Positions 42,601 to 59,216 of a stretch of DNA of 64,000 nucleotides are shown in pieces (the first letter of the stretch is position 1; every line of letters begins with the position of its first letter). The stretch comes from Alphaproteobacteria bacterium (GTDB lineage Bacteria > Pseudomonadota > Alphaproteobacteria > UBA828): assembly GCA_963667785.2 (NCBI GenBank), contig CAXXMU010000006.1, positions 896,001-960,000 on the forward strand, in the 5' to 3' direction. The position numbers and the translations under genes were made by a program. Below the pieces are notes generated by a model. The model made no database searches. It was not told the origin of the DNA and saw nothing but the letters and a program-made list of their open reading frames with translations.

Positions 42601-43977
42601 GCCGTATCCCTCCAGCACCACGTGGGCGTTCGTGCCCGACCAGCCGAACCCGCTCACGCCGGCCCTCGGCGGACGGTCGGCGTCGTGCGGCCACGCCGTG
42701 GGGGTCGCCGTCACCTCGAGCGGCAGCCGCTCCCAATCGATTTCCGGTCTCGGGACCCGGAAATGGAGGTGCCTGGGAATCATCCCCCGGTTCATGGCTA
42801 GTACGGTCTTGATCACGCCGGCCACGCCGGCCGCCGCCTCGAGATGGCCGATGTTGGTCTTGACCGAACCGATCAGCAGGGGGCGATCCGCGTCGCGCCC
42901 GCGACCGTACGCCATGCCGGTTGCCTGCGCCTCGATCGGATCGCCCACATCTGTGCCCGTCCCGTGCGCTTCCACGTAGTCGATGTCGGCAGGCTGCAGC
43001 CCGGCCCGCCGCAGAGCCGCCTCGATGACCTTCTCTTGCGCCGGCCCGCTCGGGACCGTCAGGCCCGGGCTTGCCCCGTCCTGGTTCAGCGCCGAGCCGC
43101 GCACGACCGCCCAGATGCGGTCGCCGTCGGCCTCCGCCTCGGCCAGCCGCTTGAGCACCACGATGCCGCACCCCTCGCCGCGCACATAGCCGTTCGCGGC
43201 GGCGTCGAACGTGGCGCAGCGTCCGTCCGGCGACAGCATGCCGGCGTTGGCACGCATCTCCAGCAGTCGGCCCGAGAGGATCGCGTGCACGCCGCCGGCA
43301 AGCGCCAGGTCCGCCTCGCCCCGCTGCAGGCCGGTCACCGCCTGATGGATCGCGACCAGCGAGGACGAGCAGGCGGTGTCCAGCGCGAGCGCCGGGCCTT
43401 CCAGCCCGAGCGCGAAGGCGACCCTGCCGATCGCCGTGTTGAAGGAGGTGCCCGTGACGGAATAGAGGCTGACGGCGGGCTCGACCGGCTGGTCGGTGTC
43501 CAGGATCAGCCCGCGATACTCGTTGTTGCTGATCCCGGCATAGACGCCGGTGCGGCTGCCCTTCAGGCGGTCCGGATCCATCCCTGCGTCTTCGAGCGCG
43601 TGCCAGCAGGTCTCCAGCATCATTCGCTGCTGGGGGTCGAGCAGTTGCGCTTCGACCGGCGAGATGCGGAAGAAGGCGGCGTCAAACAGCTCGAGCTCGT
43701 CGAGATAGGCGCCGAACCGGCACGCCGGGGCCTGCGCGGCATCGGGGAACAGCGCGCCGATTCGCCCGACGCCGGAGCCGGGAACCCCTTCGATCACGCC
43801 GCTCTCGCCCGCCTCCAGCAAGCGCCAGAATGCGGAAATATCGTCCGCGCTGGGGAACCGGCACGCCATGCCGACGATCGCCACGGGCGAACCGGCCTCG
43901 GGGAATCCCGACTCGCGATCCTCGGGCCGGGCGTGCGCGTCGTCAGCGCGTCCGCCGCTCCCGTCTCGTTCCGTCAT
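33616..43977 (-). CDS. supA: Type I PKS KS-AT-DH-cMT-ER-KR-ACP-KS-AT* (SupA-like)
   Basis: KS1 DTACSSS/HGTGT/NIGH; AT1 GHSLG; DH HRVFGRLIAP; MT LEVGAGTG; ER HAGAGGVG; KR GGLGGIG; ACP GMDSL; KS2 ELNCASS; AT2 GEGAG. The PKS call is firm; the supA name rests on recalled architecture. Confidence 0.88.
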   Translation of the reverse strand: MTERDGSGGRADDAHARPEDRESGFPEAGSPVAIVGMACRFPSADDISAFWRLLEAGESGVIEGVPGSGVGRIGALFPDAAQAPACRFGAYLDELELFDAAFFRISPVEAQLLDPQQRMMLETCWHALEDAGMDPDRLKGSRTGVYAGISNNEYRGLILDTDQPVEPAVSLYSVTGTSFNTAIGRVAFALGLEGPALALDTACSSSLVAIHQAVTGLQRGEADLALAGGVHAILSGRLLEMRANAGMLSPDGRCATFDAAANGYVRGEGCGIVVLKRLAEAEADGDRIWAVVRGSALNQDGASPGLTVPSGPAQEKVIEAALRRAGLQPADIDYVEAHGTGTDVGDPIEAQATGMAYGRGRDADRPLLIGSVKTNIGHLEAAAGVAGVIKTVLAMNRGMIPRHLHFRVPRPEIDWERLPLEVTATPTAWPHDADRPPRAGVSGFGWSGTNAHVVLEGYGAPNGAPPRPADGHEAVGAAQAVPISLPASVAGETTAEPAPAPRLTRVLPLSGKSDGALRALAGRYLAWLDEWAGVPAAGADALADMAWTAAAGRSHFSHRRGVVFQDDGSLRVGLAALQEGDEPAAPQTAARVAFAYTGQASQWPGMGAALYASEPVVRAVLDRCDALLAEDRAGASLLDVMFGRPGAVGDLDDPQWKQPAIYALECALAALWASIGIRPDVVIGHSLGEIAAAHTAGVFGLEEGLRFAAARGSLIGALPGEGAMAAVFAPASRIAPVLDEQNATSDGPDISIAADNGAHQVVSGPKTGIEALLARFEADEVRVARLRKSPAYHSAMIEPALGDLEAAISTIAFQPPSLTFVSNLTGRPLGEGEAPDAAYWRRQARETVAFRGCIETLAELGVDAVIEIGPHAVLGPMTTMAWPEAAGPAPVVLSSLVRPSKDEEPPAPGSGGGFADAVAGAYEAGLPLEFPGLFAGETRRRVALPGYPFQRERHWIEMPKRRRQASDHPLLGSRHESASGEIAFDTEIFPSDPAWLADHRVFGRLIAPGALYGAMAAAASLAEGSEAVVVDDFQMQSALVFPDEDAEDGAADAGRRVQVLLDGHEDGASRRVRILSRGEGEDGWTLHAEGRIPDGPPGPAPAAAPLDVEGLKAALSPVDLSGYYRAKASVGIDLGPSFRTIEALWARPGEAIAEVALPADLESGALDVHPLLLDGCFQVFGAARSADGGEEGITYLPFAWDGLRLPARLPERLICHVRMKEGPEGAAAEAENGDVPEVQAADLLLYEPDGAPIGVLAGFTVKRATRAALLAAVEGIDELLYEVVWRDAALAPGVLPADFLTAPSDVTAETDLFTAYLANEGVGADDRAALLADLEQLSHAYALATLDRLGWQREAGASVDSEDLRQRLKVGDEHVRLFRRLLEMQARTGVLTEEPDGAFVVAVGSEDPLPDGMPDDTETLAGRMAAQYAHGSNEIGLFRRSANALADVLRGEADALTLLFSSGEPTAADLYLKAPVARAANRMLADATATLLRDLPAGRRLRVLEVGAGTGSATAAVLPELPAGGYDFIYTDISAGFFSEAESRFGGAEAAIDYRVLDIEKDPLEQGFDAHGYDLVIASNVLHATRYLNETLAHCLALLAPSGQLVALENLRSQGWLDLTFGQLDGWWRFADDYRPHHALATPAVWRQALGDAGFGDVAILGFDESDPDANPDRGVIVAQGPAEVTEAPGVWVLAADRGGVADGLARELAAHNQRVVLAGDAPRGAAEDAASGVASESVEAENRDSWRALLDDLPADPPLAGVVHLAGLDGHGTQATTAEMAADAQHVAASALALTQALAESDLAPSKGLWFVTRGAQVLERERGGELAGATLWGLGKVAAREAPRLQPRMLDLDPADAWVPTDLATELLYPDDETHIAYRFGRRQCARLVRAAAVADRLALPEEPGWELAPDAGGSLDAIQVVPVPERPLEPGEVRAAIEAFGLNFRDVFIAIGLVDDFMGGEFCGRVLEVGEGVTSVAVGDRVVGMTFRNYGSETVTLEKMIVPAPAGFSVTELATIPTAFVSAALSFELSGLNAGDRVLVHAGAGGVGLAAIQLAQAAGAEVFATASARKRDYLRSLGVAHVFDSRTTAFGSDILEATGGVGVDMVLNSLTGEGYIEASLSCLAKAGRFVEMGRVDILSEDEMAALRPDVSYAILMIDVLKEEEPAKAGEILRRVMARLEAGELTPLLHARWPVAEAGSAMKCMQAARHIGKIIFTNSPLARGRLREDRSYLVTGGLGGIGIAVAGWLAERGAGAIVLNGRRAPEPEVEAAIEALRGQGAAVQVELADVTDAAALDAMLARMDADLPPLAGVIHSVGVLSDATIGNQSWETFETVLWPKMLGAWHLHRATAGRDLDMFVLFSSVAGVLGNPGQANHAAANAFLDQLAAHRQALGLPGQAIAWGAWSEIGEAEEQRERMTRRSVTGGIEWITPQQGLRAFDRLVREDATTGVVVARDWVAFGESLETRPPLLEDLLSDGADDGTDDASADDLLARLREAPAATREEVLASFLQGEVKAVLRLPTTPAPAVGFFDLGMDSLMAVELRNRLNRAFGGVYTASNTVVFDYPDIAALAAHLTGELGDIVGADAPAPQPAPAPVAAARRDGEGTADAIAIVGMACRFPGGPDLPSFWNQLDAGADAVTDERREAGPWEDFVEHLPAQYADFGRAGFVDGIDQFDARFFGISPIEARIMDPQQRMLLETTWQALEDAGIDPDGLKGSSTGVYAGVATSEYRDLMKGGDYGIGYLSTAASMAVGRLAFRFGLAGPTMPVELNCASSLVAVHQAVTSLRLGEADLALVGGVSAVLSAPITREMADLGLLSRDGVCKSFDAAADGFVRGEGCGMVVLKRLAEAEADGDRIWAVIRGSAVNQNGASAGATVPNGPAQERVIEQALSQAAISPAEVDYLEAHGAGSAFGDPIEVQAAAAVYGRGRDADRPLLIGSVKTNIGHLESAAGIAGLIKAVLAMTRGVIPQHLHLRTPSPLIEWERLPVRVTTEAADWPRAPDRPPRAGVSAFGISGVNAHVVLEGYADAEGAAGPRENGHLPAGPARPVAASLPESVAEPSPEDDASAGRDTRILPLSGKSEEAVRALAGRYLAWLDDHAGDLAADAAASGPLLSDMAWTAGVGRSHLACRAGVVFCDAASLRERLTAVAGTGGAAKTATVGKVAFVYPGEGSQWQGMGKALYESEPVVRAVLDRCEAALGEARGASLLDAMFARSGPANALEDPAWSRPATYALACALMALWSSVGIRPSAVAGEGAGEIAAAQAAGVLGLEDGLRLAAGDDPEAALEGVALAPPSIGLISGATGRPVEPGTAPDAAYWERQARERAPLERCAGALAALGADVVIELGPQAALGPALAGAWPASANAPTTSASLTPPPAGESGRSASGDTGFVAAVAAAYEAGLPVSFAGLFAGETRRRISLPGYPFQRRRHWLRKLGTQAAAPA

Positions 43978-44302: not shown

Positions 44303-44450
44303 TCCGCCGTTAGAACGTTTCGCTCTATCCCGGTATGTCTCCACAACACTCTGAAATAAGGCTTTTCATGAATGTGTCGCGTCTTGCACGGCCTCACGCC
44401 ATCCCGTACAATCCCGTCTAGTATAGGGAGTGGGAAAGAGGGTAATCGCC

Positions 44451-45686
44451 ATGGCGGACGGTCGAAAACCGAAGGGCAAGCACCCTGACAAGGCCCTGAG
44501 CCCGGCCTTCGTGCGCAAGGCCTCGAAGCCCGGACGCTACAACGACGGCAACGGGCTGTTCCTGAAGGTCGACCCCTCGGGCGCCAAGCGCTGGGGACAA
44601 AGGCTTGTCATCCACGGACGGCAGCGCACACTAGGACTTGGCGGGTGTGCGCTTGTGACTTTGGCCGAGGCGCGAGAGGCCGCACTGGCGAATCGCAAGA
44701 TCGCGCGGGCTGGCGGTGACCCGCTGGCGCAGCGTCGCCTCACGACCGATACCCCGACATTCGAGTCTGCAGCCGCGACCGTCATCGAGCTGCACCACCA
44801 CGGATGGCGCAACGAAAAGCACGCCGCCCAGTGGGAGGCCACGCTGCGCACCTACGTCCACCCGCACCTGGGCAAGCGATCCGTCGCAGACATCACGACC
44901 GCCGACGTCATGGCAGTCCTCATGCCGATCTGGAACGAGAAGCCCGAGACCGCCCGGCGCGTGCGCCAGCGCATCTCCACCGTGATGAAGTGGGCCGTGG
45001 CGCAGGGCTACCGGGGCGACAATCCTGCCGGCGACGCGATCGGCGCGGCTCTTCCCAAGCACAACGGCAAGACCAAGCGCCATCATCGAGCCCTGCCGCA
45101 CGGGGAGGTTGCGGCCGCCATCGAGGCGGTACGTGGCTCCAACGCCGGGAGGTCCGTAAAGCTCGCCTTCGAGTTTCTGGTGCTGACGGCCGCGCGCTCG
45201 GGCGAGGTCCGGCTCGCCACCTGGGACGAGATCGACAGGGACGCGAAGACCTGGACCGTACCGGCTTCACGCATGAAAGCCGGGCGCGAACATCGGGTGC
45301 CGCTGTCCGAACGCGCGCTCGCGATCCTCGATGAAGTGCAGGCGCTCTCCGACGGAAGCGGCCTCGTCTTTCCCGGCACCCGAACCGGCAAGCCGCTCTC
45401 GGACATGACGCTATCCAAGCTCATGCGCGACCTAGACCTCGACGCCGTGCCGCACGGCTTCAGATCGAGCTTCCGCGACTGGGCGGCCGAGTGCACTAAC
45501 GCCCCGCGCGACGTGATGGAGGCGGCTCTGGCCCACACGGTGCGTGACAAGGTCGAGGCCGCCTACAACCGCACCGACCTGTTCGAGCGTCGGCGCGCGC
45601 TCATGGATCAATGGGCCTCTTACCTCGACGGCGCCGCCGGCGCCGTCGTGACGATGGTGCGCCGTAAGGGACAGGCAAATGCGTGA
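44451..45686 (+). CDS. P4-like tyrosine integrase
   Basis: Arm-binding N-terminus DGNGLFL..SGAKRW; LTAARSGE, KAGREHRVPL, HGFRSSFRDW, LAH, AYNR. Confidence 0.95.
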   Translation: MADGRKPKGKHPDKALSPAFVRKASKPGRYNDGNGLFLKVDPSGAKRWGQRLVIHGRQRTLGLGGCALVTLAEAREAALANRKIARAGGDPLAQRRLTTDTPTFESAAATVIELHHHGWRNEKHAAQWEATLRTYVHPHLGKRSVADITTADVMAVLMPIWNEKPETARRVRQRISTVMKWAVAQGYRGDNPAGDAIGAALPKHNGKTKRHHRALPHGEVAAAIEAVRGSNAGRSVKLAFEFLVLTAARSGEVRLATWDEIDRDAKTWTVPASRMKAGREHRVPLSERALAILDEVQALSDGSGLVFPGTRTGKPLSDMTLSKLMRDLDLDAVPHGFRSSFRDWAAECTNAPRDVMEAALAHTVRDKVEAAYNRTDLFERRRALMDQWASYLDGAAGAVVTMVRRKGQANA

Positions 45687-46536
45687 ACGGGAGCGGAGAG
45701 CGGCACGGAAGCGACAGGACATGGAGGACGCCTATGCTGAGGCCTGTGGGATCGTCGACCACGTTCTGGCGCACCCGACGCTTCAAGACAGATTAGAGCT
45801 CAGTTTACGGTTCCCTGCTCTCTCTCCAGAGGAACAGCAGAGACAATTCCGCGACTTAGTAGAAGGAAATGCGAGGATCTGTCTGCATGGCCGACCTAAT
45901 GAGGGCATTCGGCCGGAACTCTGGTGCCACGCATTGATCGAGGAAGTTGACCTCCTGGCACATGCGCGACCCGCGCTGGAACGTGCCAAGGAGCTATACC
46001 GCGAAACAGGGACGCAAATGCCCATACGCTTGAGGGAGTGGTGTCCCGGTCCCTCCCCGTCCCGGCGGCGCGGGCCGCGTGGCCAAGCGCAAGGCATGAC
46101 AGCACTGCGCGACCACGTGCTCTCTATGCCAATCTCTGCGGTGAAATATGTTCAAGAACATAACCGTTGGCCCGAGCGTCTATCCCTTGGACGCGCGTTG
46201 TCGAAAGGAGAAGAGCCGACCGGTTACACGATCTGCGGCGCAGTTTGTGAAGTGGTCGCCGCACGCCATGGCGACTACAAAGTGTACCAGCGGGTCACCT
46301 ACCACATGGTTCGCAATGGCTGGAGACGGTACCAACGGAAAGATCGAACAAGTGTCGGGCGGCCAATCCTCCCGCCGCAAGGGCTGGCATCTGTCCTGAA
46401 CCCTCCCGACGGCACCGGTGAGCCCTTCCGGCGCTGGATGGGGGAGAGGACTGCACGCCACATCGCCGGTGAGCTCAATGCACCGACTGCTGACCCGATC
46501 CAAGACGGCTCGGCCCAAGATACCGACGCTGGCTGA
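45679..46536 (+). CDS. Hypothetical protein coupled to the integrase
   Basis: 285-aa ORF overlapping the integrase stop; no motif recognised. Confidence 0.6.
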   Translation: MRERERRAARKRQDMEDAYAEACGIVDHVLAHPTLQDRLELSLRFPALSPEEQQRQFRDLVEGNARICLHGRPNEGIRPELWCHALIEEVDLLAHARPALERAKELYRETGTQMPIRLREWCPGPSPSRRRGPRGQAQGMTALRDHVLSMPISAVKYVQEHNRWPERLSLGRALSKGEEPTGYTICGAVCEVVAARHGDYKVYQRVTYHMVRNGWRRYQRKDRTSVGRPILPPQGLASVLNPPDGTGEPFRRWMGERTARHIAGELNAPTADPIQDGSAQDTDAG

Positions 46537-46652: not shown

Positions 46653-46904
46653 ATGTCTGGCGACGATCAGCTCTTGCGGCTGCCCGCCGTGACCCAGCTC
46701 ACTGGTGTTTCTCGCAGCCGAATCTACTTGCTCATGCAATCGGGCGAGTTCCCGCGCTCGCTGAAGATTGGCCCCCGCGCACGCGCCTGGAGCAAGCGAG
46801 AGATTCTCGACTGGATGGCGCAACGCCAGCGAACGCGTCCCGGCGAGATGCCGGCAACACCCTCAACCGGTTCATGCGCCGCACGGGCGCGCTCGCCCTC
46901 TTGA
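46653..46904 (+). CDS. alpA: AlpA family regulator/excisionase
   Basis: LLRLPAVTQLTGVSRSRIY.LM..GEFP...IG.RARAW...EI.DW. Confidence 0.92.
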   Translation: MSGDDQLLRLPAVTQLTGVSRSRIYLLMQSGEFPRSLKIGPRARAWSKREILDWMAQRQRTRPGEMPATPSTGSCAARARSPS

Positions 46905-47386: not shown

Positions 47387-48457
47387 TCAATCCTCTGTGT
47401 TTTGTGGGACTGGCGGCCGCTCTTGCTGGATCACATCGACACGATCCTTGAGTGCACCAAAATCACTAGTGGCATTCTCCAGCCGTTCTTCGAGGTTCTC
47501 TATTCGCTCTGTAATGCTTTGAGCATTCTCGGTCGCCTGCTGCCGATCCGCCTTCACCTGCTGATGAACCTCATTCGTCGTTGTTACCACCTGACTCACA
47601 AGGGAATAACCTTGAACAATAATCGTAGCAATTGCCGCAACCACCAATATCGCAGTTGCAACACCTATCCAAGTGTAAAGTTTTCTGAATCGGTCGGTAG
47701 TGTCGCGTGATTTTTCGACAGAATCTCTAGCTTCTTCTGCCCCTTTTCGAGCTGTTTCAGCAGCGTTTCTGGTTTCATCCAAGGCTCCATGGAAAGCACT
47801 CTGTACTCCGCCTTGGGCGGTTACTCCGGATTTCAGAAAGTACGCAAGCGGATCGTCAAGGTCTTTTGCGTTGGGAAATGCTTTCAGATTCTCAGGTCTC
47901 CCTACACCCTCCTTATTATGCTGCTTCCAATATTCGCTTTCGGATAGTTTTGTAAATTCCACCCAAATAATCCCATCTCCACCACAAATTTCATAATTGT
48001 TATTTGTGAGGTTATGCAGCGGAATCAGTAGACTTCCCGAAAATCCAGAATCTACTAGTGGACCAGTTCCCAATAACAGACCCTTATGTACATGACGAAT
48101 GTGTAAGTTGAAACGCGCAGCGATATACTCCGGAAGAAACAATTGTTCTGCCATCCACAAATAAGTTATAGAGTTGCGGTGTAGTATAGTGGGTTTATCT
48201 TTCACTATTTCTCTACAACGGGGCTTCAATTGTCCTTCATCAGTGACAATCCAGTCATAAAGCTTGCCTAGAAACCGCATCTCGTATGACGCAGGCTTGA
48301 GAAGATCAGAGTCGAACGTCGCTTTGTCGAGAAGACATCCAATGTCGACATATTTCTTGATGTCAGCAGAATTCAGCAGCGCCGGAGCTATGTCTTGTGA
48401 ATAGGGATCATAGGCGTAGTTTTTGTTTTTCCGCCATTGTTGATGTGTTCTAGTCAT
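47387..48457 (-). CDS. dCTP deaminase/dUTPase-fold protein with C-terminal TM helix and coiled coil
   Basis: LLNSADI, LKPASYEMR, PLVDSGFSG.L...LHNL; TM IGVATAILVVAAIATIIV; GAAGGA RBS. Confidence 0.8.
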   Translation of the reverse strand: MTRTHQQWRKNKNYAYDPYSQDIAPALLNSADIKKYVDIGCLLDKATFDSDLLKPASYEMRFLGKLYDWIVTDEGQLKPRCREIVKDKPTILHRNSITYLWMAEQLFLPEYIAARFNLHIRHVHKGLLLGTGPLVDSGFSGSLLIPLHNLTNNNYEICGGDGIIWVEFTKLSESEYWKQHNKEGVGRPENLKAFPNAKDLDDPLAYFLKSGVTAQGGVQSAFHGALDETRNAAETARKGAEEARDSVEKSRDTTDRFRKLYTWIGVATAILVVAAIATIIVQGYSLVSQVVTTTNEVHQQVKADRQQATENAQSITERIENLEERLENATSDFGALKDRVDVIQQERPPVPQNTED

Positions 48458-48490: not shown

Positions 48491-49555
48491 CTAATTCTGG
48501 TCGCTTTTCTGCGTGAACGGCTCGGTAAACCATCCGGATTGGGGACGGTCGATAATGCGGCTAGGGCCTGATCCTACATAGTTGATTTTCTGTCCCAATT
48601 GAGATTCGAGAAGCGAAACGCATTTGCCTGCTCGAGAGCTGATAGTAGCGGACTCGTGAATCGCATAGTCAAAATAGTCTACGTGATTGAGAAAAATCAT
48701 GTTTGGAGAGTTCGCCCGAAGTGCCCGGAGCACGACCTCGTCATGAAACTCAGCGACTCGGCGGGGTCGCCCAGTAACTGTAGTGAACTCTGTCAGGTTG
48801 ACGTTGGCTCCGCTGCTGCGTGTGATTGACTCCCATGTGGTCTCAAGAGGGAGAGGACCAGAATTTCCGTGCACACGGATGGGAAATGAGCGGATGACCA
48901 GGGCAACGCAGTCGACAAGACGTGGGCTCAGTCCCGCCTCGGACAAAGCTCCTGCCGCAGTTGTGTCGCGGCTAGTTGAATATGGGTAGTGCCCGCCGTG
49001 CAGAATTGATAGCCCGAAGCCTTGGGTGCCTTCAATCATGACACGTTGTCCGTCTTCGAGGGCGACGGCCAGGACGTCGTCTAGGTCAGGACGAACGAAT
49101 TCACGAAGGCACTCAATGGTACCGGCAAACGTGATCGACGATCTCCGCATCGCTCGTTGCGCCACGGCCCCACCCACTCCCTGTCCCGTGGATGCTATTC
49201 CTTCCAGCAAGCCTGCGGCGCGCTCATCTGCTCTCATCGAATCGTCCAGCACGACGGCCGACGGATGAATCAACAAGCGGTCTTTCGTGAGGCCAGTTTC
49301 TTCCATTTCGCGCATGAGAATGGTGGAATCGAGGTAGGCACCCGCAGGAACGATACCGATAACGTCGTCGGTCAGGATTGGTGTGGGAAGATGCTGAAGA
49401 ACAATGCGACGTCCGTCCTCGACCACAGTGTGACCCGAGTTCGGTCCTCCTACGCGAATCGCGTATCGCGGTCGTTGCAGGCGCGCCAGCCAGTGTGCGA
49501 CCTTGCCCTTGCCTTCCGAACCGTATTGGCCACCGACTACTATGGTTACCGGCAT
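48491..49555 (-). CDS. Adenylosuccinate synthetase-family protein, short PurZ/PurZ0-like variant
   Basis: GGQYGSEGKGK, GGPNSGHT, EGTQG, YPYSTSRD, PIRVHGNSGPL, TTVTGRPRRV, NHVDY. Confidence 0.88.
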   Translation of the reverse strand: MPVTIVVGGQYGSEGKGKVAHWLARLQRPRYAIRVGGPNSGHTVVEDGRRIVLQHLPTPILTDDVIGIVPAGAYLDSTILMREMEETGLTKDRLLIHPSAVVLDDSMRADERAAGLLEGIASTGQGVGGAVAQRAMRRSSITFAGTIECLREFVRPDLDDVLAVALEDGQRVMIEGTQGFGLSILHGGHYPYSTSRDTTAAGALSEAGLSPRLVDCVALVIRSFPIRVHGNSGPLPLETTWESITRSSGANVNLTEFTTVTGRPRRVAEFHDEVVLRALRANSPNMIFLNHVDYFDYAIHESATISSRAGKCVSLLESQLGQKINYVGSGPSRIIDRPQSGWFTEPFTQKSDQN

Positions 49556-51633
49556 GCTAAGCGTTCACCTATTGTGTTTCGCAGGATGGTCTCCAGGTCT
49601 TGAATGGTGCCGTTGTTGTCGAGTGTAGAGTCTGCTAAGCTCCGCATGACTTGCACGTTCTGCTCAACCGGGTGGGTGTCAGCACGACGGAAGGCGTCTT
49701 CCGATGCATCTGCCTCCGAAGTGTATCGTCGGGCACGAAGGGCCAAGGTCGCTTCGACGTGAAGGTGGAGGGCCGTGGTTCCCCATCTTTCGCGCAAGAA
49801 GGCTCTATCCTCAGGGTGTCTCAACCCGTCAACCACAACCCGTGAGTAGTGTTCGACGCACGCGGCCAGCTTGTTTTGGAGTTGTCGTTGTCCGAAGCGG
49901 CTGCGATGAGCTTCCTCGCCGAATTCCTGAAGGGCGTCCCTCGTGACCGGGGTTCCACGTGCGCGAAGCTCTCTCGCAATGATTTCGCTGAATCGGCAAT
50001 ATTTAAATCCCATGCATTCCAATAATCTCGCTGCAGTGGTCTTCCCTGCCGCGATCGGTCCGCTAAGGCCAACCGCGATGGTGGATCGGAGATCAGGCGA
50101 GCGACGGTTGACCGTTGGCACGACCAAGTAGTCCTCCTCTGTGCTTCCGAGTGCTTCCCAGTAGCCTGCGAGCATGAACTGACCAACCAGGGCGGATGTC
50201 GTTGCGTCGAGTTCGTCATGAGAAACCCTGAGTTCGGTGCCAAGGTCAGCGTAACCGAAGCGGCGCAAACCTTCGGTGAGGTGTTTCAGGCTTGTCTTTT
50301 TTCTAGGGATCCCCAAGATGTCCTGGGCAGCTCCTGGGTAACTCTCAATGACGGGGATGCCAAGTTTCCTCAATCGAGTCGCTAAGTCGACGCCACGCCT
50401 AGTTAATCTCTGCATACTGGGAAGCAGCGCTGGATAAACATGAACGCCCCTACTGCGAAGTATGCGTTCTGCTTCTCGAACGATTCCAAACTCGCTGCGG
50501 CCAGGATCGTCGTCAAATTCCGAGATTCGTCCCTCTGGAAGTGAGAGTGGGGAGTCGATTGAAACGAGAAAGGGTTCGGTGTCCAAGGTTCTCTTGATTA
50601 AGTCGGCATCTGATGCGACCACATTCATCGTCAGATGTTGGCCCGTCAACGCCGCCCATCCCGACTTGCGTTTCTCGCTGCCGGTCAAATCAAGCCCGAC
50701 GATGGTGATGTCATCCAACATTGGTGCGTTCTCACGCAGCTCTGAATAAGTGAGTCTCGGACCGACGGTACCAGTGTATGGACTGATGGATATGGCATTG
50801 CCGTCGCTGACGGCTTCAGCATGCGGGAAGTAGATGCTCGATCGGGGGAAGAGGCCGCTGTTTGAAGAGAGCATGACGGTGGGATGTACTACCCGGCGGA
50901 TGACCTCCTCGAAGAGAAATTTCATGCCTTCGATATCGGCATGATTGTAGCGTACCAGTTCGCGTAAGGCGTTCAGGTCGCCTTCCTTGTAGTCGAACCA
51001 TAAGGATACAGCTTCGGCTCCTGTGATTCCGCTGAGTGACCCTTCGCGGGTAAGTCCGATCTCTTGCTCGATTTTCTTCTGCCCTCCGGTCAAGCCGACC
51101 CGCTTGGCCAAGTAGCGAAGGTCGACATGACACAGGCCGGACCAATCCGTCTCGAAGTGCTTGGTGAGAAACGGGAGGTCGAACAAGGACCCGTTGAAGG
51201 TCACCACGATGGGATGCTCGTGTAGATCATGTTCGAGCTGAGCGACCTGGCTGGGGTCGACCAGTACCGTGTAAGTGCCGCCGACGGACCAGCCAACTAG
51301 GGTGACTTGATCGTAGTGAGGGCTCAGGCCCGTGCTCTCGATGTCGAGGAACACAGAGCTTTCGGGGAAGGTGGCGGCGATACGGTAGAACTCACGCTTG
51401 GGCAGTTTTCGCGCGAAGAACTTGATGTCACGAGTGGCGAGAGCCTCCTCGGAAGCCTCCACGGCGGACTGCAGCGCACTGGCGCTCTTGCGGTAGAGGT
51501 CGAGCTGGATCGGTGTGTGGCGGATGAGCTCCATCCAATCGGAGACGCCCTGGGCCCATAGCCTAGCCTCCGCCGCCGCGGAGATTCTCGGAAGGTGCAG
51601 AAATGTGCGACGGAGCAACTTTGCTTCGGGCAT
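49546..51633 (-). CDS. Fusion of YprB-like DEDD/RNase H-fold exonuclease, DUF429 nuclease-like domain and P-loop NMP kinase
   Basis: RRTFLHLP; FLDIESTG, TFNGSLFD, YNHADI; GLDLTG, IDSPLSLP, ESYP, HDELDA; GPIAAGKTT, DGLRHPED; alternative start 51756. Confidence 0.85.
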   Translation of the reverse strand: MPEAKLLRRTFLHLPRISAAAEARLWAQGVSDWMELIRHTPIQLDLYRKSASALQSAVEASEEALATRDIKFFARKLPKREFYRIAATFPESSVFLDIESTGLSPHYDQVTLVGWSVGGTYTVLVDPSQVAQLEHDLHEHPIVVTFNGSLFDLPFLTKHFETDWSGLCHVDLRYLAKRVGLTGGQKKIEQEIGLTREGSLSGITGAEAVSLWFDYKEGDLNALRELVRYNHADIEGMKFLFEEVIRRVVHPTVMLSSNSGLFPRSSIYFPHAEAVSDGNAISISPYTGTVGPRLTYSELRENAPMLDDITIVGLDLTGSEKRKSGWAALTGQHLTMNVVASDADLIKRTLDTEPFLVSIDSPLSLPEGRISEFDDDPGRSEFGIVREAERILRSRGVHVYPALLPSMQRLTRRGVDLATRLRKLGIPVIESYPGAAQDILGIPRKKTSLKHLTEGLRRFGYADLGTELRVSHDELDATTSALVGQFMLAGYWEALGSTEEDYLVVPTVNRRSPDLRSTIAVGLSGPIAAGKTTAARLLECMGFKYCRFSEIIARELRARGTPVTRDALQEFGEEAHRSRFGQRQLQNKLAACVEHYSRVVVDGLRHPEDRAFLRERWGTTALHLHVEATLALRARRYTSEADASEDAFRRADTHPVEQNVQVMRSLADSTLDNNGTIQDLETILRNTIGERLACR

Positions 51634-51993
51634 GGGCAGGCAGCGACCCGTCGTTGGGACCTCGGCACCGAGAACTTGTAGCACAAAGCGTGCCAGAGCA
51701 ATGTGGTGTGGTTCGGCGCCTAGTACTGTGGTAATTAGGTTAACGAATTCAGACACTTATCGTTCAAGCCAGTATCGACTTGGAGCAAGGACTGGCATGA
51801 GGCGGCCAAGGGAGCATGGCCGAGGATGAAATAACTGGAGAGTGTGGAAGAGCCGGAACGCGACCAGGAGGGCTAGAAACGTCTTGACGCTAGGACATCT
51901 GTCCTGTCGAACGGTGCATGATCGGACCGGACGTGAGCGGGAGAACTGGGCTAGGCTGTCATGGAGGTCTGAGCTGGGGATAGGGCGGTAGAT

Positions 51994-52221: not shown

Positions 52222-55161
52222 ATGACAGAGCCGATCCTGAATGAGGTGCTGGAGGCTACCGGCTATCTATCTGACGGTGAGCCGGCACACGGTGTGTACC
52301 TGAGTGGGGAAGCCGATGGGCTACCCAGATTCCGCGATTTTTCGCCCGATGCGCTGTGGCGGAGCGAGTCGGCACTGACCGTCTATTTCAAGTACGAAAG
52401 TGAAGATCCTTCCGAGGAACAGATCGCAGCGTGGCAGCGCGAAATATGGAATCACGGGTTCGCGCCGCTTCTGTGGGTGATTTCGCCCGAGAGCATTGGA
52501 GTCTACAACGGCTTCAGCCGGCCTCGAGAAGCTGGAAACGCGACGGTGCATCTGCTGGACACGTTCGGTCGGATCGAGGAGGAGCTCGACAGGCTCGATG
52601 CACTCGCCGGTCGGCTTGCAATGGAGACGGGTGAGTTCTGGCGCCGGGCGCGGTCTGTGCACCGTAGAACGTGCGTCGACCGGCAGCTCCTGTCGGATTT
52701 GGGCTCACTCGAGGGGGACCTCGAGTCGGAGGACCTAGATCGTCCCGGTGCGCAGGGTCTGATTGGACGTTCGATATTTGCCCAGTATCTGATCGACCGG
52801 GGAATCGTTACGCGCGAATTCTTGGAAAGCGAGTACGGTCACGGGACGCTCTCTGACATACTACGGGATCGCCAAGCTACGAAAGAACTATTCGACTGGC
52901 TTCGCGATACCTTCAACGGCGATATGTTTCCTGCGGAGAGTTCGGGCCTACCGGGAACGCGACATTTGCAGCGGGTCGCAGACTTCCTTGACGCTGTGGA
53001 TCCAGAGTCGGGACAGAGAACATTCTTTCCATATCAGTTCGACGTGATACCGGTCGAGTTGATCAGCTCGATCTACGAACAGTTCGCGAATTCCGATTCG
53101 GAGCCCAACGATGATGAGAGTGAGGAGGATGTCCATTATACGCGACTGTCGCTTGTTTCTCTGGTCTTGGACGAGATCGCCGACGGATTGGGTGGACGTG
53201 AAACAGTCCTTGACCTGAGCTGCGGGTCGGGGGTGTTTCTGGTGGAAGCCCTGCGAAGGCTGGTCGTGCACCGCTGCAACGGGAAAAGGCCAAACCGCAG
53301 GGTGATCCGTTCTGTGTTGTACGATCAAATCTATGGCGTCGACATTAGCGAGGCCGCGGTGCGCGTCGCCGCGTTCAGTCTCTACTTGGCCGCGCTGGAA
53401 CTCGACCCGAATCCGAGACCGCCGAAGGAGCTTAGGTTCAGGCCTCTCATCGGTAGAACTCTGTTTATCGCCGATTCTCGAAACGTAGAAGAAACGCCGG
53501 AGGGCAGGCGGGCTTTGACGGAAGGGGGCGAACGAAGGGCATTCGATGTCATCGTTGGGAACCCGCCGTGGAGCTACCGAGGCAAAAAGGCCCGGGCAGC
53601 TGCAAATTCGACAAGCGAATCGAGAGGCATCCGCGCGCCACGGGGCGTGAGCCTGGACTTCGTCTTGAGGGCCTTGGATTTTGCAACTCCTGATACGCGA
53701 TTGGGCATGGTCTTGAGCGGCGTCCAGTTCTTCAGCCGCAGCGGAACGGGAGCGGCCGTGTTGCGGGGCCTTTTGGAGGAGCTTTCTCCGGTAACATTGG
53801 TGAACCTGTCGTACCAGTCGAGCTGGCTGTTTCCGCGGGGTAGCCTGCCAGCAATGGTCCTCTTGGCGAGGCACCGGCCTTCCACACATGACGCAATAAC
53901 AGCTGTGCAGGTGCCATGGTCGCCGGCGGGAGAGCAAAGCCATACATTTGAGATTGCGCGCGAGGACATCGTAACGCTGCCGATCTCCGATTGGATGCGT
54001 AAGCCGGAGTGCCTGAAGACCGCCTTTTTCGGGCTGGGTCGTGATTTGGCGCTGTTGGACAGGCTGACTGATCGCTATCGGTCACTAGGAGAGCAACTAC
54101 AGGCTCTGGATACCGAGTTGCGCGGCGGCCTCAAGTATGGAGACCGCAGCCGCGATGCGCGCTTTCTTCAGGATCTTCCTGTGCTGACCAAGACGGACGT
54201 GCGGCCATTTGTCGTGTCGGACGGCCTGCATCAATTCGATAGCGATTGGGCAGAGCGTCCGCGGAGCCGTGAAACTTATCGGGCGCCGTTGGTCTTGGTC
54301 CGGGAATTTGTTCAGGCAGGGGGTCGTGCAGTGTGCGCGGTGGCTGAGCGGGATGTTGTGTTCACCGATGCCCTCTTGGGTGCGACGATCCCGCGCGAGA
54401 AAGTTGGGATAGCCTATTTGATCGCGTCAATACTAAGTTCCTCGCTCGCATCGTGGTTCTTCTTGATGACCGGTTCGACCTTCGGGCTGTCGATGCGACG
54501 TTTGCTACTCCGGGACATCGAACACCTCCCAATTCCGTCTCTGGACAGGGCGTGTCGGTCGACGGCTGGGCAGCGGCTGATCGAACTTGGTCGACGGCGC
54601 AGAACGGATCGGCTGGCCGGTCGGGACTGGCGAGAGATTGATGAGGCGGTATTTGATCTCTACGAACTGGACGAGGCGGATCGCATCGTCGCTCGTGATG
54701 GGCTGGTCCGGGCGGGATGGCAGTGGAAATCTGGCAGGGTTGCATCGGCAAGGGCGGCCGAAATGGATGCGGACATGCTTATCTATGCCCAAACGTTCCT
54801 GTCAGCGGTCGATGCTTGGCTTGCCGAGGGAAAGCGACGCCGCATGAGGGGCGAATTATTTGATCTTTCCGCGAGCGCGCCGTACCGCGTGGTTCGCTTT
54901 ATCCTGGAAGATGAGATCGGTCCATCGACGACGGGCCTGGTAAGGACGGAAGGCAGACTGCGGGATGTGCTCGACCGGATCGGAGAACGGTTGAATGTGC
55001 GCATCGGAGAGGCCTTGGTGGGTCAACGCGCGTTGCGGGTGTATGGCCCGAACGAGGTTGTAATCATTAAGCCGGCTGCTCGCCGACACTGGATGGGCGT
55101 GTCGGCGCTGGATGATGCCGATGCCGTAGTCAGCGACAGCCTTTCAGGACTTGCGGGGTGA
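52222..55161 (+). CDS. N6-adenine DNA methyltransferase with target-recognition region (Eco57I/type IIG-like)
   Basis: Motif X HYTR, motif I LDLSCGSGVFL, YGVDI, motif IV VIVGNPPW; 979 aa. Confidence 0.9.
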   Translation: MTEPILNEVLEATGYLSDGEPAHGVYLSGEADGLPRFRDFSPDALWRSESALTVYFKYESEDPSEEQIAAWQREIWNHGFAPLLWVISPESIGVYNGFSRPREAGNATVHLLDTFGRIEEELDRLDALAGRLAMETGEFWRRARSVHRRTCVDRQLLSDLGSLEGDLESEDLDRPGAQGLIGRSIFAQYLIDRGIVTREFLESEYGHGTLSDILRDRQATKELFDWLRDTFNGDMFPAESSGLPGTRHLQRVADFLDAVDPESGQRTFFPYQFDVIPVELISSIYEQFANSDSEPNDDESEEDVHYTRLSLVSLVLDEIADGLGGRETVLDLSCGSGVFLVEALRRLVVHRCNGKRPNRRVIRSVLYDQIYGVDISEAAVRVAAFSLYLAALELDPNPRPPKELRFRPLIGRTLFIADSRNVEETPEGRRALTEGGERRAFDVIVGNPPWSYRGKKARAAANSTSESRGIRAPRGVSLDFVLRALDFATPDTRLGMVLSGVQFFSRSGTGAAVLRGLLEELSPVTLVNLSYQSSWLFPRGSLPAMVLLARHRPSTHDAITAVQVPWSPAGEQSHTFEIAREDIVTLPISDWMRKPECLKTAFFGLGRDLALLDRLTDRYRSLGEQLQALDTELRGGLKYGDRSRDARFLQDLPVLTKTDVRPFVVSDGLHQFDSDWAERPRSRETYRAPLVLVREFVQAGGRAVCAVAERDVVFTDALLGATIPREKVGIAYLIASILSSSLASWFFLMTGSTFGLSMRRLLLRDIEHLPIPSLDRACRSTAGQRLIELGRRRRTDRLAGRDWREIDEAVFDLYELDEADRIVARDGLVRAGWQWKSGRVASARAAEMDADMLIYAQTFLSAVDAWLAEGKRRRMRGELFDLSASAPYRVVRFILEDEIGPSTTGLVRTEGRLRDVLDRIGERLNVRIGEALVGQRALRVYGPNEVVIIKPAARRHWMGVSALDDADAVVSDSLSGLAG

Positions 55162-56222: not shown

Positions 56223-57368
56223 TCACCCTGCGACCTCGGCGATACGGTTGGCGATGCGGTTGGCAGCCGACTTGACGGGATCATTTGCGAGGTGGGCATA
56301 GCGGGCGGTGGTCTGCACCTGGGTATGGCCAAGCAGCTTGCCGATCATGGGCAGGCCTTCGCCGACCAGGAGACCACCGCTGGCAAAGGAGTGGCGCAAA
56401 TCGTGGATACGGAGGTCGGCCAGCCCCGCCCGCGCTCGGATGCGCCGCCAAGGGTGTTGAAGGTCGGTCAGATGACTGTCCTCCTTGCGGCCGGCGATGA
56501 CCCACGGATTGTCACCCCGTCTCTCGATGCCACGCAGCACGGCGATGGCCGGGTCGCCGAGATGAACGACCTTGGCGCCCGTTTTCGTTTCCGGCAGCTT
56601 GAGTTCCCCGACCTCCAGATCGACATGCTCCCAGCGCAGCTTCTGAATCTCCGAAAGCCGGCAGCCGGTCAGCATGAGGAGCCGGATCGCTGCGATCGCC
56701 GCGGGAGTTTCTGAGCGCTCTTGTTCGATCTCCCGAAGGGCGGATCCAAGACGTTGATACTCGTCGTCAGATAGAAAGCGCTCTCGTTTCTCTTCCTTGA
56801 AGCGCTTCACATGGCGACAGGGGTTGGACCCATCGGGGCGGAGCTCCCAGAGCTCGGCCAAGTTGAACATCTTGGACAATACTCCGAGCGTGCGGTTTGC
56901 CTGGTAGGGCGTCTCGCGCAGGTCGTGATGGAGTGCGGCGATATTGCTCCGCTGGACGTCCGGGACACGCAGCTTGCCGATGCGCGGGTTGATGAAGAGT
57001 TCCACCGATCGGCGGTACTCCGCGGCCGTGCTCTGCTTGCAGTGGTTGGGGACATATTCCTTGAGGAAGCGTTCGCCCAACGTCCGCATGGTCGGTGCGT
57101 TGGATCTGCGTCCCTTGGGGTTCTTGCCGGCTCTCGCATCGGTGATGATCTCGGCGGCGCGGACGCGGGCATAGGCTGCGGAGACAGCGTGAGCCGGGCC
57201 GATGGTCATCTTGATGATCCGACCCTGGTAGCGGGTCTTGACGATGAACACCTTTCGACCGGAGGGATGGACGCGCACACCGAATCCCTTGAGGTCGTCG
57301 TCCCATACGACGCGCTCGCGCTCGTGGGGCTTGAGAGCATCGACGGTTCGCTTGGTGATCTTCGGCAT
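56223..57368 (-). CDS. Tyrosine integrase with arm-binding domain
   Basis: MPKITKR..WDDDLKGFGVRV; LTGCRLSE, KTG, HDLRHSFAS, LGH, ARY. Confidence 0.95.
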   Translation of the reverse strand: MPKITKRTVDALKPHERERVVWDDDLKGFGVRVHPSGRKVFIVKTRYQGRIIKMTIGPAHAVSAAYARVRAAEIITDARAGKNPKGRRSNAPTMRTLGERFLKEYVPNHCKQSTAAEYRRSVELFINPRIGKLRVPDVQRSNIAALHHDLRETPYQANRTLGVLSKMFNLAELWELRPDGSNPCRHVKRFKEEKRERFLSDDEYQRLGSALREIEQERSETPAAIAAIRLLMLTGCRLSEIQKLRWEHVDLEVGELKLPETKTGAKVVHLGDPAIAVLRGIERRGDNPWVIAGRKEDSHLTDLQHPWRRIRARAGLADLRIHDLRHSFASGGLLVGEGLPMIGKLLGHTQVQTTARYAHLANDPVKSAANRIANRIAEVAG

Positions 57369-57533
57369 TCCGGTCTTCCCTTGGCCCGAAATCGCAGGTA
57401 CTCTATAGGTACCTGGGAAACCCAACTCGGACGCAAGCATAGCTGCGTGCGGACAACGAGGGAAGAGAAATAATATAGGGAAATCAACGTACTGATAAGT
57501 CTGTGCATCAGGTGACAACGAAGTCATGCCAAA

Positions 57534-57578
57534 CTCATAACCTGAAGGTCGAAGGTTCAAGTCCTGCCCCCGCAACCA
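57534..57578 (+). pseudogene. 3' half of tRNA-Met(CAT) (att-site remnant)
   Basis: ctcataacctgaaggtcgaaggttcaagtcctgcccccgcaacca: anticodon loop, T arm, CCA; no 5' half upstream. Confidence 0.88.
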
Positions 57579-59216
57579 CCGAGACCGACATCTCCGGCAT
57601 GGGGATGTCGGTCTTCGTGTTTTCGCGCCCGTTTCCAGCCCATTCGAGGATCGCACCAAGATCGCCGTGCAGCACGGCGTCCATCTCGGCCCATTTCTCG
57701 CTCGGGGTGAGCACGATGCGCTCGATCAGGCCGCGGATGGCCGCCGCCGCCGCGTCGCGGTCCTCCGGATGGTCCAGCGCTTCGGCAAGCCGCGCCACCT
57801 TGCGCCGGTAGACGTCCGCGATGTTGGGGTGGATGTCCGGGAGGTCGGCGGGCGCCGCTGACAGTCTCTCGTTCAGCTCGTCCTGGCGCGCCTCCAGCTC
57901 GCGCAGCCGGTCCACCATACCCCGGACGTAGCCGCCGTCCTCGATGACGGCGATCATGGCGGCGATCTTCGTCTCGACCTGGGCCAACTCCTTCCGGTCG
58001 CTCGCGCCCGAGGCGCGGCGCTCCCGGTTGATCCGGTTGGTCTCCTCGGCCCAGGCCCGCATCGCCTCGGCGGCGGCCTCCGGCGCCATCAACCGGTCCT
58101 TCGGCCCGGACAGCACGCGCTCTTCGATCACGGAGCGGCGGATGCCGCGGCCGTTCGAGCATGTGCCGGTCATGATGTGGTTGGAGCAGCCGTAGCGGTC
58201 CTGGCCGCGCATGGAATAGGGGCCGCCGCAGACGCCGCATTCGAGCAGGCCCGAGAGCAGGTGGCGCGGCCGGTGGGCGCCGTTCAGCCGGTAGGCCCGC
58301 ACGCTTTGCGTGGCCTCGATGACGGTGGCGTATTGCACCGTGATCTCGCCCTGGCGGTCCTTCACCGCCTTCCAGAGATCGTCGTCGACGATGCGGAGTT
58401 CGGGCACATCCGCGACGATCCACTCCTCCGGCGGGTTGATCCGCGAGACCCGCTTGCCGGTCTCCGGGTTCTTGACGTAGCGCAGCCGGTTCCACACCAG
58501 CCGGCCGATATAGAGCTCGTTGTTGATGAGCCCCGCGCCCCGCTTCGCGTGGCCCCGGATGGTGGTATCCATCCAGAGCTTGCCCGAGGGGCCGGGGACG
58601 CCTTCCCCGTTCAGCCGCCGCGCGATCGCGCGCGGGCTGGCGCCGTCGGCAAACTCCCGGAACACCCGGCGCACGATCTCGGCCTCGGCTTCGTTGACCG
58701 TGCGCCCGCCGCGGACCGGATCGCCCGCGCCGTCGAACGACTTCACCACGTCGTAGCCGTAGCAGAGACCGCCGCCCGACTTGCGGCCTCGACCCGGCCG
58801 CGAAGCCCCCGGTGCGTCTTCGCCGCGAGGTCCTTCAGGAACAGCGCGTTCATCGTGCCCTTGAGCCCGACATGGAGCTCGCTGATCTCGCCCTCGGCCA
58901 GCGTCACCACCGTCACCCCGGCGAAGCGCAGGTGCTTGTAGAGCGTCGCCACGTCCGCCTGGTCGCGGCTCACCCGGTCGAGGGCCTCGGCGAGCAGGAT
59001 CTCGAACATCCCCCGCCGCGCGTCCTCCAGCAGCGCCTGGATGCCGGGACGCAGGATCATGCTGTCGCCCGAGATGGCGGAGTCCTTGTAGGCACCCGCG
59101 ATCTTCCAGCCCTCGCGCCCCGCGCGCTCGCGGCAGACCCGGAACTGGTCCTCGATCGACGCCGCCCGCTGCTGGTCCGAGGAGTAGCGGGCGTAGAGCG
59201 CGCAGCGCAGGGTCAT
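57535..59216 (-). pseudogene. Large serine recombinase with a single frameshift near 58784
   Basis: N-part YARYSS...EALDRVSR; C-part recombinase and Zn ribbon (CGVCG...C..H..TC); restoring one G gives EAGKSGGGLCYGYD. Confidence 0.88.

Follow-up and report, generated by a model that had tools for sequence, protein, structure and literature searches.

The stretch of DNA analyzed here, 64,000 nucleotides from an alphaproteobacterial genome (assembly GCA_963667785.2, contig CAXXMU010000006.1, positions 896,001 to 960,000, forward strand; hereafter the window), contains at 48491 to 49555 a gene that we call PurX. Judged by its Ser13, a short insertion and its placement in trees, the product is a member of a serine-type radiation of short adenylosuccinate synthetases, and the gene is a horizontally acquired extra copy and not the housekeeping purA. 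PurX is the middle gene of a three-gene operon, and related operons form a cassette, three or four genes long and horizontally mobile, that is patchily distributed in several phyla. We propose that PurX is a synthetase that uses GTP and takes a guanine nucleotide, dGMP over GMP, as substrate, and that it may be central in a mobile cassette producing deoxynucleotides of 2-aminoadenine (Z), with an anti-phage purpose as our guess; drawn by analogy, this proposal seems to us to have about an even chance of being right.

A serine-type short adenylosuccinate synthetase

The open reading frame (ORF) of PurX was read from the minus strand, and the motifs GSEGKG, TSRD, TTVTGRPRR and NHVD, which an initial annotation had reported for this interval, are all present in its translation. 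The gene is described below, with motifs and key residues in PurX numbering.

48491..49555, minus strand: PurX gene, ATG start, 354 amino acids, from the ORF translation
PurX motifs, first half: GSEGKG (Ser13), GPNSGHT (Asn39/His42), STGQGVG
PurX motifs, second half: TSRD (194-197), TTVTGRPRR (258-266), NHVD (290-293)
PurX key residues: Ser13, Lys16, Asn39, His42, Thr123, Arg137, Gln178, Ser195, Val228
PurX key residues, continued: GNSG insertion at 230-233, Thr261, Gly262, Arg263, Arg265, Asp293

Homology to adenylosuccinate synthetases is far above chance, since Pfam family PF00709 is matched at 4e-43 with 148 bits against a cut-off of 27. PurX scores under every NCBIfam curated cut-off for PurA and PurZ that we tried, and its matches in the Protein Data Bank (PDB) are led by a short PurA from an archaeon.

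NCBIfam NF003295 (archaeal-type PurA): 253 bits, cut-off 368
NCBIfam NF038379 (PurZ): 218 bits, 1.2e-64, cut-off 300
TIGR00184 (purA): 181 bits, cut-off 395.55
NCBIfam NF002223 (purA-type): 148 bits, cut-off 402
PDB, short PurA of Pyrococcus horikoshii (2D7U/5K7X): 1.2e-49, the best pairwise match
PDB, PurZ0 of Gordonia phage Archimedes (7VF6): 1.5e-42
PDB, E. coli PurA: about 9e-36
PDB, phiVC8 PurZ: 3e-31
PDB, S-2L PurZ: 4.5e-28

The active site was compared in a residue alignment of PurX with E. coli PurA, the host's own PurA, one Asp-type short PurA, three annotated phage PurZ and three phage enzymes of the PurZ0 clade. The canonical GDEGKG P-loop that the initial annotation had given is indeed that of E. 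coli PurA (translated from NC_000913.3), which has GDEGKG, TTGRRRR and TKLD at the aligned positions. In E. coli numbering, which is used for the aligned positions from here on, PurX retains Lys16, Asn38, His41, Thr129, Arg143, Gln224, Ser240, Val273, Thr301 and Arg305; outside the mosaic no catalytic position has changed, and the enzyme looks catalytically intact. The positions that make up the mosaic compare across the groups as follows.

Position 13: Ser in PurX, Asp in PurA, Ser in the PurZ0 clade, Ser in PurZ
Positions 302-303: Gly-Arg in PurX, Gly-Arg in PurA, Asn/Gln/Lys-Lys in the PurZ0 clade, Lys-Lys, Lys-Arg or Lys-Leu in PurZ
Position 333 (PurX 293): Asp in PurX, Asp in PurA, Asp in the PurZ0 clade, Asn in PurZ

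The mosaic PurZ/PurA active site first proposed for this protein is therefore real: Ser13 replaces the P-loop Asp as it does in the aligned PurZ and PurZ0 rows, Gly262-Arg263 (PurX numbering) is PurA-like, and Asp293 is like that of PurA and PurZ0, while Asn is found at 333 in the PurZ of phiVC8, ZP6 and SH-Ab 15497. The accompanying statement that PurZ has lost Arg303 is right only in part. Residue 303 is Lys in phiVC8 PurZ and in the three PurZ0-clade phage enzymes and Leu in SH-Ab 15497, but the annotated PurZ of ZP6 has Arg, so the loss is not uniform. Among 163 serine-type rows of a wider alignment, Lys occupies this position in 81 and Arg in 58, one of the latter an annotated phage PurZ; the Gly-Arg pair at 302-303 is present in 21 rows, 12 of them the PurX clade. 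PurX and PurZ0 also have in common a two-residue insertion right after Val273, which aligns as RVH-GNSG-P. Over the 175 short homologues of the wider alignment, the GNSG-type insertion appears in 105 serine rows, none of which carries the PurA-type RVGxGP loop, with 41 further serine rows left unclassified by this pattern, and the insertion is found in 0 of 119 Asp-type Elusimicrobia enzymes.

Scanned in full with PurX, a set of 1.84 billion representatives yielded 7,425 homologues with E-values up to 1e-3, 728 of them with values up to 1e-30. A regular expression for the P-loop picks out Ser in 118 of the 120 nearest homologues and has no match in the other two, so that Ser13 of PurX is no sequencing slip. 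Over 149 representatives treated in the same way, 117 show Ser, 4 Gly, 2 Asp and 1 Leu; no pattern match was obtained for 25, many of them shorter than 300 amino acids. In the alignment of 175 short homologues, position 13 is Ser in 163. One representative, P0254, and 10 other rows of this alignment stand apart, with Asp in P0254, Gly in five rows and Leu in one; P0254 keeps the GNSG insertion along with its Asp. Such non-Ser members may have reverted or may be inactive.

Trees were built with FastTree from the 175 rows and with IQ-TREE from 65 rows (LG+C20, quick search, support by the Shimodaira-Hasegawa-like approximate likelihood ratio test [SH-aLRT] without bootstrap). In both, long PurA and Asp-type short PurA stand apart from each other and from a single large group of serine-type enzymes. 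With IQ-TREE, PurX falls inside a 58-row serine-type group together with PurZ and PurZ0 (SH-aLRT 97), within which PurZ (100), PurZ0 (99), kinase-fused enzymes (96) and PurX (100) are distinct clades. The phylogenetic check against PurA, PurZ0 and PurZ that the initial annotation had suggested thus places PurX apart from long housekeeping PurA and in a clade of its own among serine-type enzymes. A 2026 Nucleic Acids Research study of viral PurZ (PMC12884076) gives, in the part of it consulted here, Ser throughout the 147 phage sequences that make up its PurZ group; its sampling of prokaryotes was capped at two sequences a phylum, which may be why the bacterial serine-type radiation is missing from the same part.

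PurX and PurZ0 are alike in Ser13, the GNSG insertion after Val273, Asp333 and a short archaeal-type length, and PurX also has a partner of the dUTPase fold. They differ in that PurX forms a separate clade and has Gly-Arg in place of Asn/Gln/Lys-Lys at 302-303, and in that PurX is bacterial and chromosomal whereas PurZ0 is borne by phages (actinophages). With PurZ, the ATP/dATP enzyme of phiVC8, S-2L and SH-Ab 15497, PurX shares Ser13 and the overall fold family, but PurZ has Asn333 and a longer insertion after Val273, and PurX lies outside the PurZ clade (support 100). Short PurA, whether of the archaeal type or the housekeeping enzyme of Elusimicrobia, is of the same length class and has the TSRD/TSKD motif and Gly-Arg at 302-303, but it carries Asp13 and an RVGxGP loop without the insertion. 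We note that section 24 of PMC12884076 gives the donor preferences in the opposite order to ATP for PurZ and GTP for PurZ0. From the parts of these sources consulted, the order in that section seems reversed, given Asp333 in PurZ0 and Asn333 in PurZ, the paper's own introduction, in which PurZ uses ATP, and a 2025 preprint.

Operon partners and a mobile cassette

The two genes that flank PurX in the operon encode multidomain proteins.

49546..51756, minus strand: upstream gene, 736 amino acids, its stop overlapping the PurX start by 10 nucleotides
736-residue protein, N-terminal region: no family match
736-residue protein, residues 135-284: DEDDy 3'-5' exonuclease, PF13482 (RNase_H_2), 1.2e-27
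736-residue protein, residues about 350-540: DUF429-like RNase-H-fold domain, 2.2e-4 on the excised segment, just under the cut-off
736-residue protein, residues 555-721: CoaE-like P-loop kinase, Pfam CoaE 1.6e-6
47387..48457, minus strand: downstream gene, 356 amino acids, starting 33 nucleotides after the PurX stop
356-residue protein, residues about 28-172: dCTP-deaminase/dUTPase-fold domain, the deaminase Glu replaced by Pro and the Asp of VDSGF kept
356-residue protein, residues about 263-281: single transmembrane helix, followed by a C-terminal coiled coil (hydropathy)

In orthologues of the 736-residue exonuclease-kinase protein the motifs DIE, FD and YNxxD are kept, as is Walker A; the DUF429 match recurs in two of them, and that domain is very conserved. 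The dCTPase model of PADLOC matches the kinase part alone, at 1.8e-8, and there are weak PDB matches to diDNase and dephospho-CoA kinase. The 356-residue protein matches TIGR02274 at 3.7e-9, PDB entry 9ln0 at 5e-4 and PF22769 at 7.5e-6, the last with 26.6 bits against a cut-off of 27, while its orthologues reach 43-54 bits; atlas neighbors carry PF22769 or PF00692. By alignment and hydropathy, one transmembrane helix and a coiled coil are present in all nine orthologues, and eight of the nine retain the dUTPase-motif Asp.

The composition of this second partner allows a different reading, signaling in abortive infection, according to which PurX and the kinase would make an unusual purine nucleotide as an alarm, the degenerate dUTPase-fold domain would be its sensor, and the transmembrane helix and coiled coil would be the killing effector. 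Pairs of an enzyme and a membrane effector are a known layout of immune signaling (CBASS, Pycsar, Thoeris), and a partner that has its helix and coiled coil in all nine orthologues, lacks the deaminase Glu and the Ser phosphate motif and in one orthologue lacks the Asp as well would suit such a sensor. We nevertheless consider this reading unlikely: the dUTPase-motif Asp is kept in all other orthologues, a deoxynucleoside kinase and an exonuclease suit bulk metabolism better, and neither PurX nor the fold domain of its partner has a PADLOC match.

Related loci were found in Gammaproteobacteria, Alphaproteobacteria, Binatia, Acidobacteriota, Planctomycetota and Gemmatimonadota, and the exonuclease-kinase gene adjoins PurX in 11 of 11. 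Among the 12 cassettes with downstream sequence, which include the window and one more genome, the dUTPase-fold gene is present in 10; an AAA ATPase takes its place in L011 and nothing does in L007. A fourth gene, encoding a deoxynucleoside kinase (PF01712, 2.3e-24), belongs to 6 of the 12, and the kinase domain of the exonuclease-kinase gene is missing from 2 (Binatia loci). In a gammaproteobacterial metagenome-assembled genome (L004, 9103-10051), the dUTPase-fold gene matches as two pieces in different frames, through either a frameshift or an assembly error. The DNA polymerase A beside another cassette (L009) is not a DpoZ, as it is 953 amino acids long with a full 5'-3' exonuclease domain, like housekeeping PolI.

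Gene fusions occur as well. One representative (P0125) joins a PurX-like enzyme to a DCD domain, and all six long forms scanned join a P-loop kinase to a PurX-like enzyme. The kinase fusions (L031-L034, L040) are a separate serine-type clade in which the P-loop kinase is N-terminal; DUF7002 lies downstream in three of four genome loci and a YfbR-like HD gene upstream in two of the four. DatZ of the Z-phages is a member of the YfbR-like fold family. The kinase-fusion clade looks like a second uncharacterized cellular Z-like cluster.

Matches at 1e-40 or better were found in 5 of 400 other genomes of the phylum, one of them a triad cassette and four of them kinase fusions, and at the same threshold 18 of 20 congeneric species genomes have no match; the other two carry 42-44% relatives (L041, L042), each reported with one TGA inside the match. 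Plasmids of cultured bacteria carry some of these genes. A two-gene version, PurX with the dUTPase-fold gene, sits on a conjugative plasmid of Sinorhizobium medicae (pMl5) beside a toxin-antitoxin pair, and a plasmid of Burkholderia thailandensis has a kinase fusion with a transposase gene and an integrase gene on its two sides and a 216-residue gene downstream.

We also considered a phage or prophage origin of the cassette, which is unsupported, as the partners have no close relatives in 50,697 phage records: the dUTPase-fold protein has no tblastn match there and the 736-residue protein one weak partial match. For PurX itself, IMG/VR yielded relatives of 28-29% identity only, with a single-sequence query of the kind that finds close relatives only. 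PurZ0 phages pair their synthetase with a Dut-like dATP/dGTP pyrophosphatase (PMC12884076, in the part consulted). Compared with DutZ, the PurX partner is likewise of the dUTPase fold, but it is membrane-anchored and lacks a match in the phage records.

A contrasting case bears on whether PurX could belong instead to the biosynthesis of another modified purine, for a natural product or DNA hypermodification. On plasmid pCC283b_4 of Rhizobium leguminosarum (L039, 6375-14723) we found a toyocamycin-like deazapurine cluster with the following genes.

folE, Asp-type short adenylosuccinate synthetase, purB, queE, IMP-dehydrogenase-like gene
nitrile hydratase subunit, queC, HAD gene, phosphoribosyltransferase, queD

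The short homologue of this cluster is of the ToyG type. Like PurX, ToyG-type enzymes are short PurA-like enzymes recruited outside primary purine synthesis on mobile DNA, and the occurrence of such a homologue between folE and purB, beside queC, queD, queE and nitrile hydratase on R. leguminosarum plasmids, would speak for such a route. In the deazapurine (toyocamycin-like) pathway the 2-amino group is removed first, and position 13 of the Rhizobium enzyme, flanked by folE, purB and queCDE, is Asp, not Ser. This is as expected if Ser accompanies substrates that have a 2-amino group and Asp accompanies those without one, and it separates the Rhizobium enzyme from PurX, near which there are no deazapurine or other tailoring genes, whether in the window or at any of the 11 related loci. 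A 2026 preprint (10.64898/2026.01.15.699771), in the part consulted, connects PUA-domain immune systems with operons in which adenylosuccinate synthetases serve modified bases, which would favor a modified purine for PurX too; on balance we find that quite improbable.

The island around PurX

The initial annotation placed PurX in a bacterial island, and the window agrees: an integrase-bounded, low-GC stretch of about 13 kb surrounds the operon, its GC content is 0.50-0.59 from about 46 to 57 kb and 0.68-0.73 on either side, and the housekeeping purA is elsewhere.

44430..45686, plus strand: tyrosine integrase at the left island edge, Phage_int_M 3.9e-31, with Arm-DNA-bind_3 and Phage_integrase
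56223..57659, minus strand: second, candidate tyrosine-integrase-like ORF near the right island edge, named from a reading of its translation
52222..55161, plus strand, divergent: type IIG restriction-modification-like methyltransferase, 979 amino acids, PADLOC REase_MTase_IIG 3.6e-45, Pfam Eco57I and N6_Mtase

The candidate integrase ORF has a weak BLASTP match (22% identity, 1.8e-5) to one ORF of a kinase-fusion locus (L033), and the left-edge integrase matches that same ORF at 4.4e-47. A search of the island and operon turned up no att repeats, no tRNA gene and no clear promoter or terminator, and the ORF list and a Pfam scan gave no DatZ, MazZ or DpoZ genes on the island.

The full-length purA of the genome lies on another contig (C2:93046-94302, 565 bits), so that PurX is an extra paralogue; the host purB was also found, at 456 bits and above its cut-off. 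Ser13, the curated cut-offs and this second purA copy together rule out PurX as the housekeeping PurA. There is still the idea of a spare or stress-specific PurA that makes adenylosuccinate from IMP. It can draw on P. horikoshii PurA as the best single-sequence match, on the PurA compatibility of every residue except position 13 and on the approximately unbiased (AU) test, which does not exclude a placement beside Asp-type enzymes. Yet Asp13 is present in 99% of the 251-sequence PurA group in the consulted part of PMC12884076, where PurX has Ser, and an enzyme under all curated PurA cut-offs, on a mobile low-GC island of a genome with its own housekeeping purA, is a very poor candidate for this role; we regard it as highly improbable.

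The type IIG gene was rejected as part of the cassette, since it has no tblastn match in the 11 related loci, and is island cargo. The start of an ORF of 223 amino acids (55158-55829, plus strand) overlaps its stop; this ORF has no Pfam, PADLOC or NCBIfam match, and the two genes may be a separate two-gene defense system on the island. The island has three more ORFs, one of 285 amino acids with no family match (45679-46536, plus strand), a small one resembling, by eye, an AlpA-type regulator (46653-46904, plus strand) and one resembling, also by eye, the C-terminal part of a large serine recombinase (57535-58749, minus strand). Just left of the island, in high-GC host DNA, an ORF of 3,453 amino acids (33616-43977, minus strand) appears from its translation to be a modular polyketide synthase, with repeated ketosynthase, acyltransferase, dehydratase, methyltransferase, enoylreductase, ketoreductase and carrier-protein-like stretches.

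Proposed chemistry and role

Phage PurZ and PurZ0 are the only characterized serine-type enzymes, and by analogy with them PurX would work on a guanine nucleotide, phosphorylating its O6 and then adding aspartate to give N6-succino-2-amino-(deoxy)adenylate. The DEDDy exonuclease and the dUTPase-fold protein, joined in some cassettes by the deoxynucleoside kinase, would supply the dGMP from DNA, dGTP or deoxyguanosine. Host PurB would release the Z deoxynucleoside monophosphate (dZMP) from the PurX product, and the P-loop kinase domain would phosphorylate it onward, so that the net effect of the cassette would be to drain G and A deoxynucleotides and to make 2-aminoadenine deoxynucleotides. The donor is likely GTP because the Asp of the guanine-recognition motif is kept; PurZ0 reportedly uses GTP as well, in work from 2023 by Tong et al. 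The substrate leans toward the deoxy form because the conserved partners are deoxynucleotide enzymes. The GTP-dependent enzyme acting on GMP or dGMP that the initial annotation had envisaged survives in this proposal as the best homology-based inference so far as the guanine nucleotide and GTP are concerned, with GMP less favored than dGMP.

The same chemistry could run on the ribonucleotide, converting GMP, aspartate and GTP to N6-succino-2-amino-AMP and on to ribo-2-aminoadenine nucleotides to be used in RNA, as a signal or as a cofactor. At Gly262-Arg263 PurX does not differ from the PurA loop, that of the host PurA included, and the 736-residue protein has a Pfam match to the CoaE-like kinases, a family (dephospho-CoA kinase) that acts on ribose hydroxyls. 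In the part of the S-2L structural study consulted, Arg303 of PurA is the contact of O2' of IMP, and the loop next to Val273 is the one closest to the sugar C2' (PMC8342488). The sugar-side features of PurX conflict, as Arg303 is PurA-like and the Val273 insertion PurZ0-like. We favor the deoxynucleotide and hold the ribonucleotide route to be improbable: Arg303 is common in the serine-type rows, an annotated phage PurZ among them, the insertion by that loop is of the PurZ0 type, and the partners are of the deoxy type (a deoxynucleoside kinase in half of the cassettes, a dUTPase fold and a DEDDy exonuclease). These same points leave the earlier step from a retained Arg303 to a ribo product unsupported.

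Several observations weigh against the proposal that PurX makes Z deoxynucleotides. Placing the PurX clade with Asp-type enzymes is not rejected (AU test, p 0.146, log-likelihood difference 24.5), and the trees hold no true archaeal PurA; a search for such sequences, seeded with two Asp-type short proteins, returned only bacterial serine-type homologues and Elusimicrobia enzymes. The stretch VTGRPRR is identical in PurX and in the housekeeping PurA of its own genome, and with Gly-Arg kept and the Arg contacting O2' in PurA, a ribonucleotide substrate is possible. The PurZ serine lies 3.7 A from the 2-amino group, beyond hydrogen-bond distance (PMC8342488, in the part consulted), so the Ser is a correlate and not a proven determinant. 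Within the cassette, the deoxynucleoside kinase is missing from the window's own copy. The 356-residue protein is without the usual phosphate-binding Ser motif, and the Asp is missing in one orthologue, so this partner may bind nucleotides and not hydrolyze them; its membrane anchor is left unexplained by the proposed pathway. As for defense, PurX matches 0 PADLOC models and its partners give only weak or partial matches. The DNA flanking the 11 related loci varies from one to the next and consists for the most part of housekeeping genes (glyS, polA, rlmJ), with scattered defense-like matches among 97 flank ORFs (mad2 in four, SoFic in two). Flank matches to GajB/DRT were dismissed as defense genes, since their strong scores all come from one UvrD-like helicase in L004. 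The substrate, donor and deoxy preference of PurX, the order of the pathway and the defense role are all points that we infer.

An anti-phage manipulation of the nucleotide pool is our guess for the role of the cassette, one that would fit its mobility and patchiness, the island of the window and the likeness of the kinase to the defensive dCTP deaminase. The nucleotide-depleting anti-phage enzymes (defensive dCTP deaminase, dGTPase) offer a parallel in this kinase, which matches the kinase part of the dCTPase model, and in the starving or poisoning logic that we propose. They differ from the PurX cassette, which has no cytidine-deaminase or HD dGTPase domain and in which the PurX step would create a new nucleotide and not just destroy one.

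Our literature search found no paper describing the PurX cassette or a bacterial PurZ-like defense, although the supplements of PMC12884076 and a PUA-Cal-HAD preprint, which were outside the search, may list homologues or operons. The nearest mention is one sentence, in the consulted part of the 2026 preprint cited above, linking adenylosuccinate-synthetase operons for modified bases to PUA-domain systems (10.64898/2026.01.15.699771).

PurX is a new variant in the PurZ/PurA superfamily in a new cellular context, and ribo-Z is the weakest part of the earlier reading. A serine signature characterized so far only in phage enzymes occurs here in bacteria, on chromosomes as well as plasmids, where it has its own conserved cassette. 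To our knowledge, 2-aminoadenine synthesis has been characterized only as a phage means of escaping restriction. That bacteria carry their own pathway to Z deoxynucleotides, with a mobile cassette turning G nucleotides into dZ and the serine-type homologues forming a family of such systems, is a tentative and somewhat doubtful extension of these findings. Were it true, the cassette could serve immunity, by poisoning or starving the DNA synthesis of phages, or it could put Z into the DNA of the cell or island, and the 728 representatives found at 1e-30 or better, including the kinase fusions beside DUF7002 and YfbR-like genes, would be cellular Z systems. The natural variation at positions 302-303 and 333 within one family is a ready test of sugar and donor specificity. 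If the proposed chemistry holds, the cassette would also be a source of enzymes for Z nucleotides, and either cells turn the base known from phages against them, or Z is present in some cellular or mobile DNA; each of these would be new biology.

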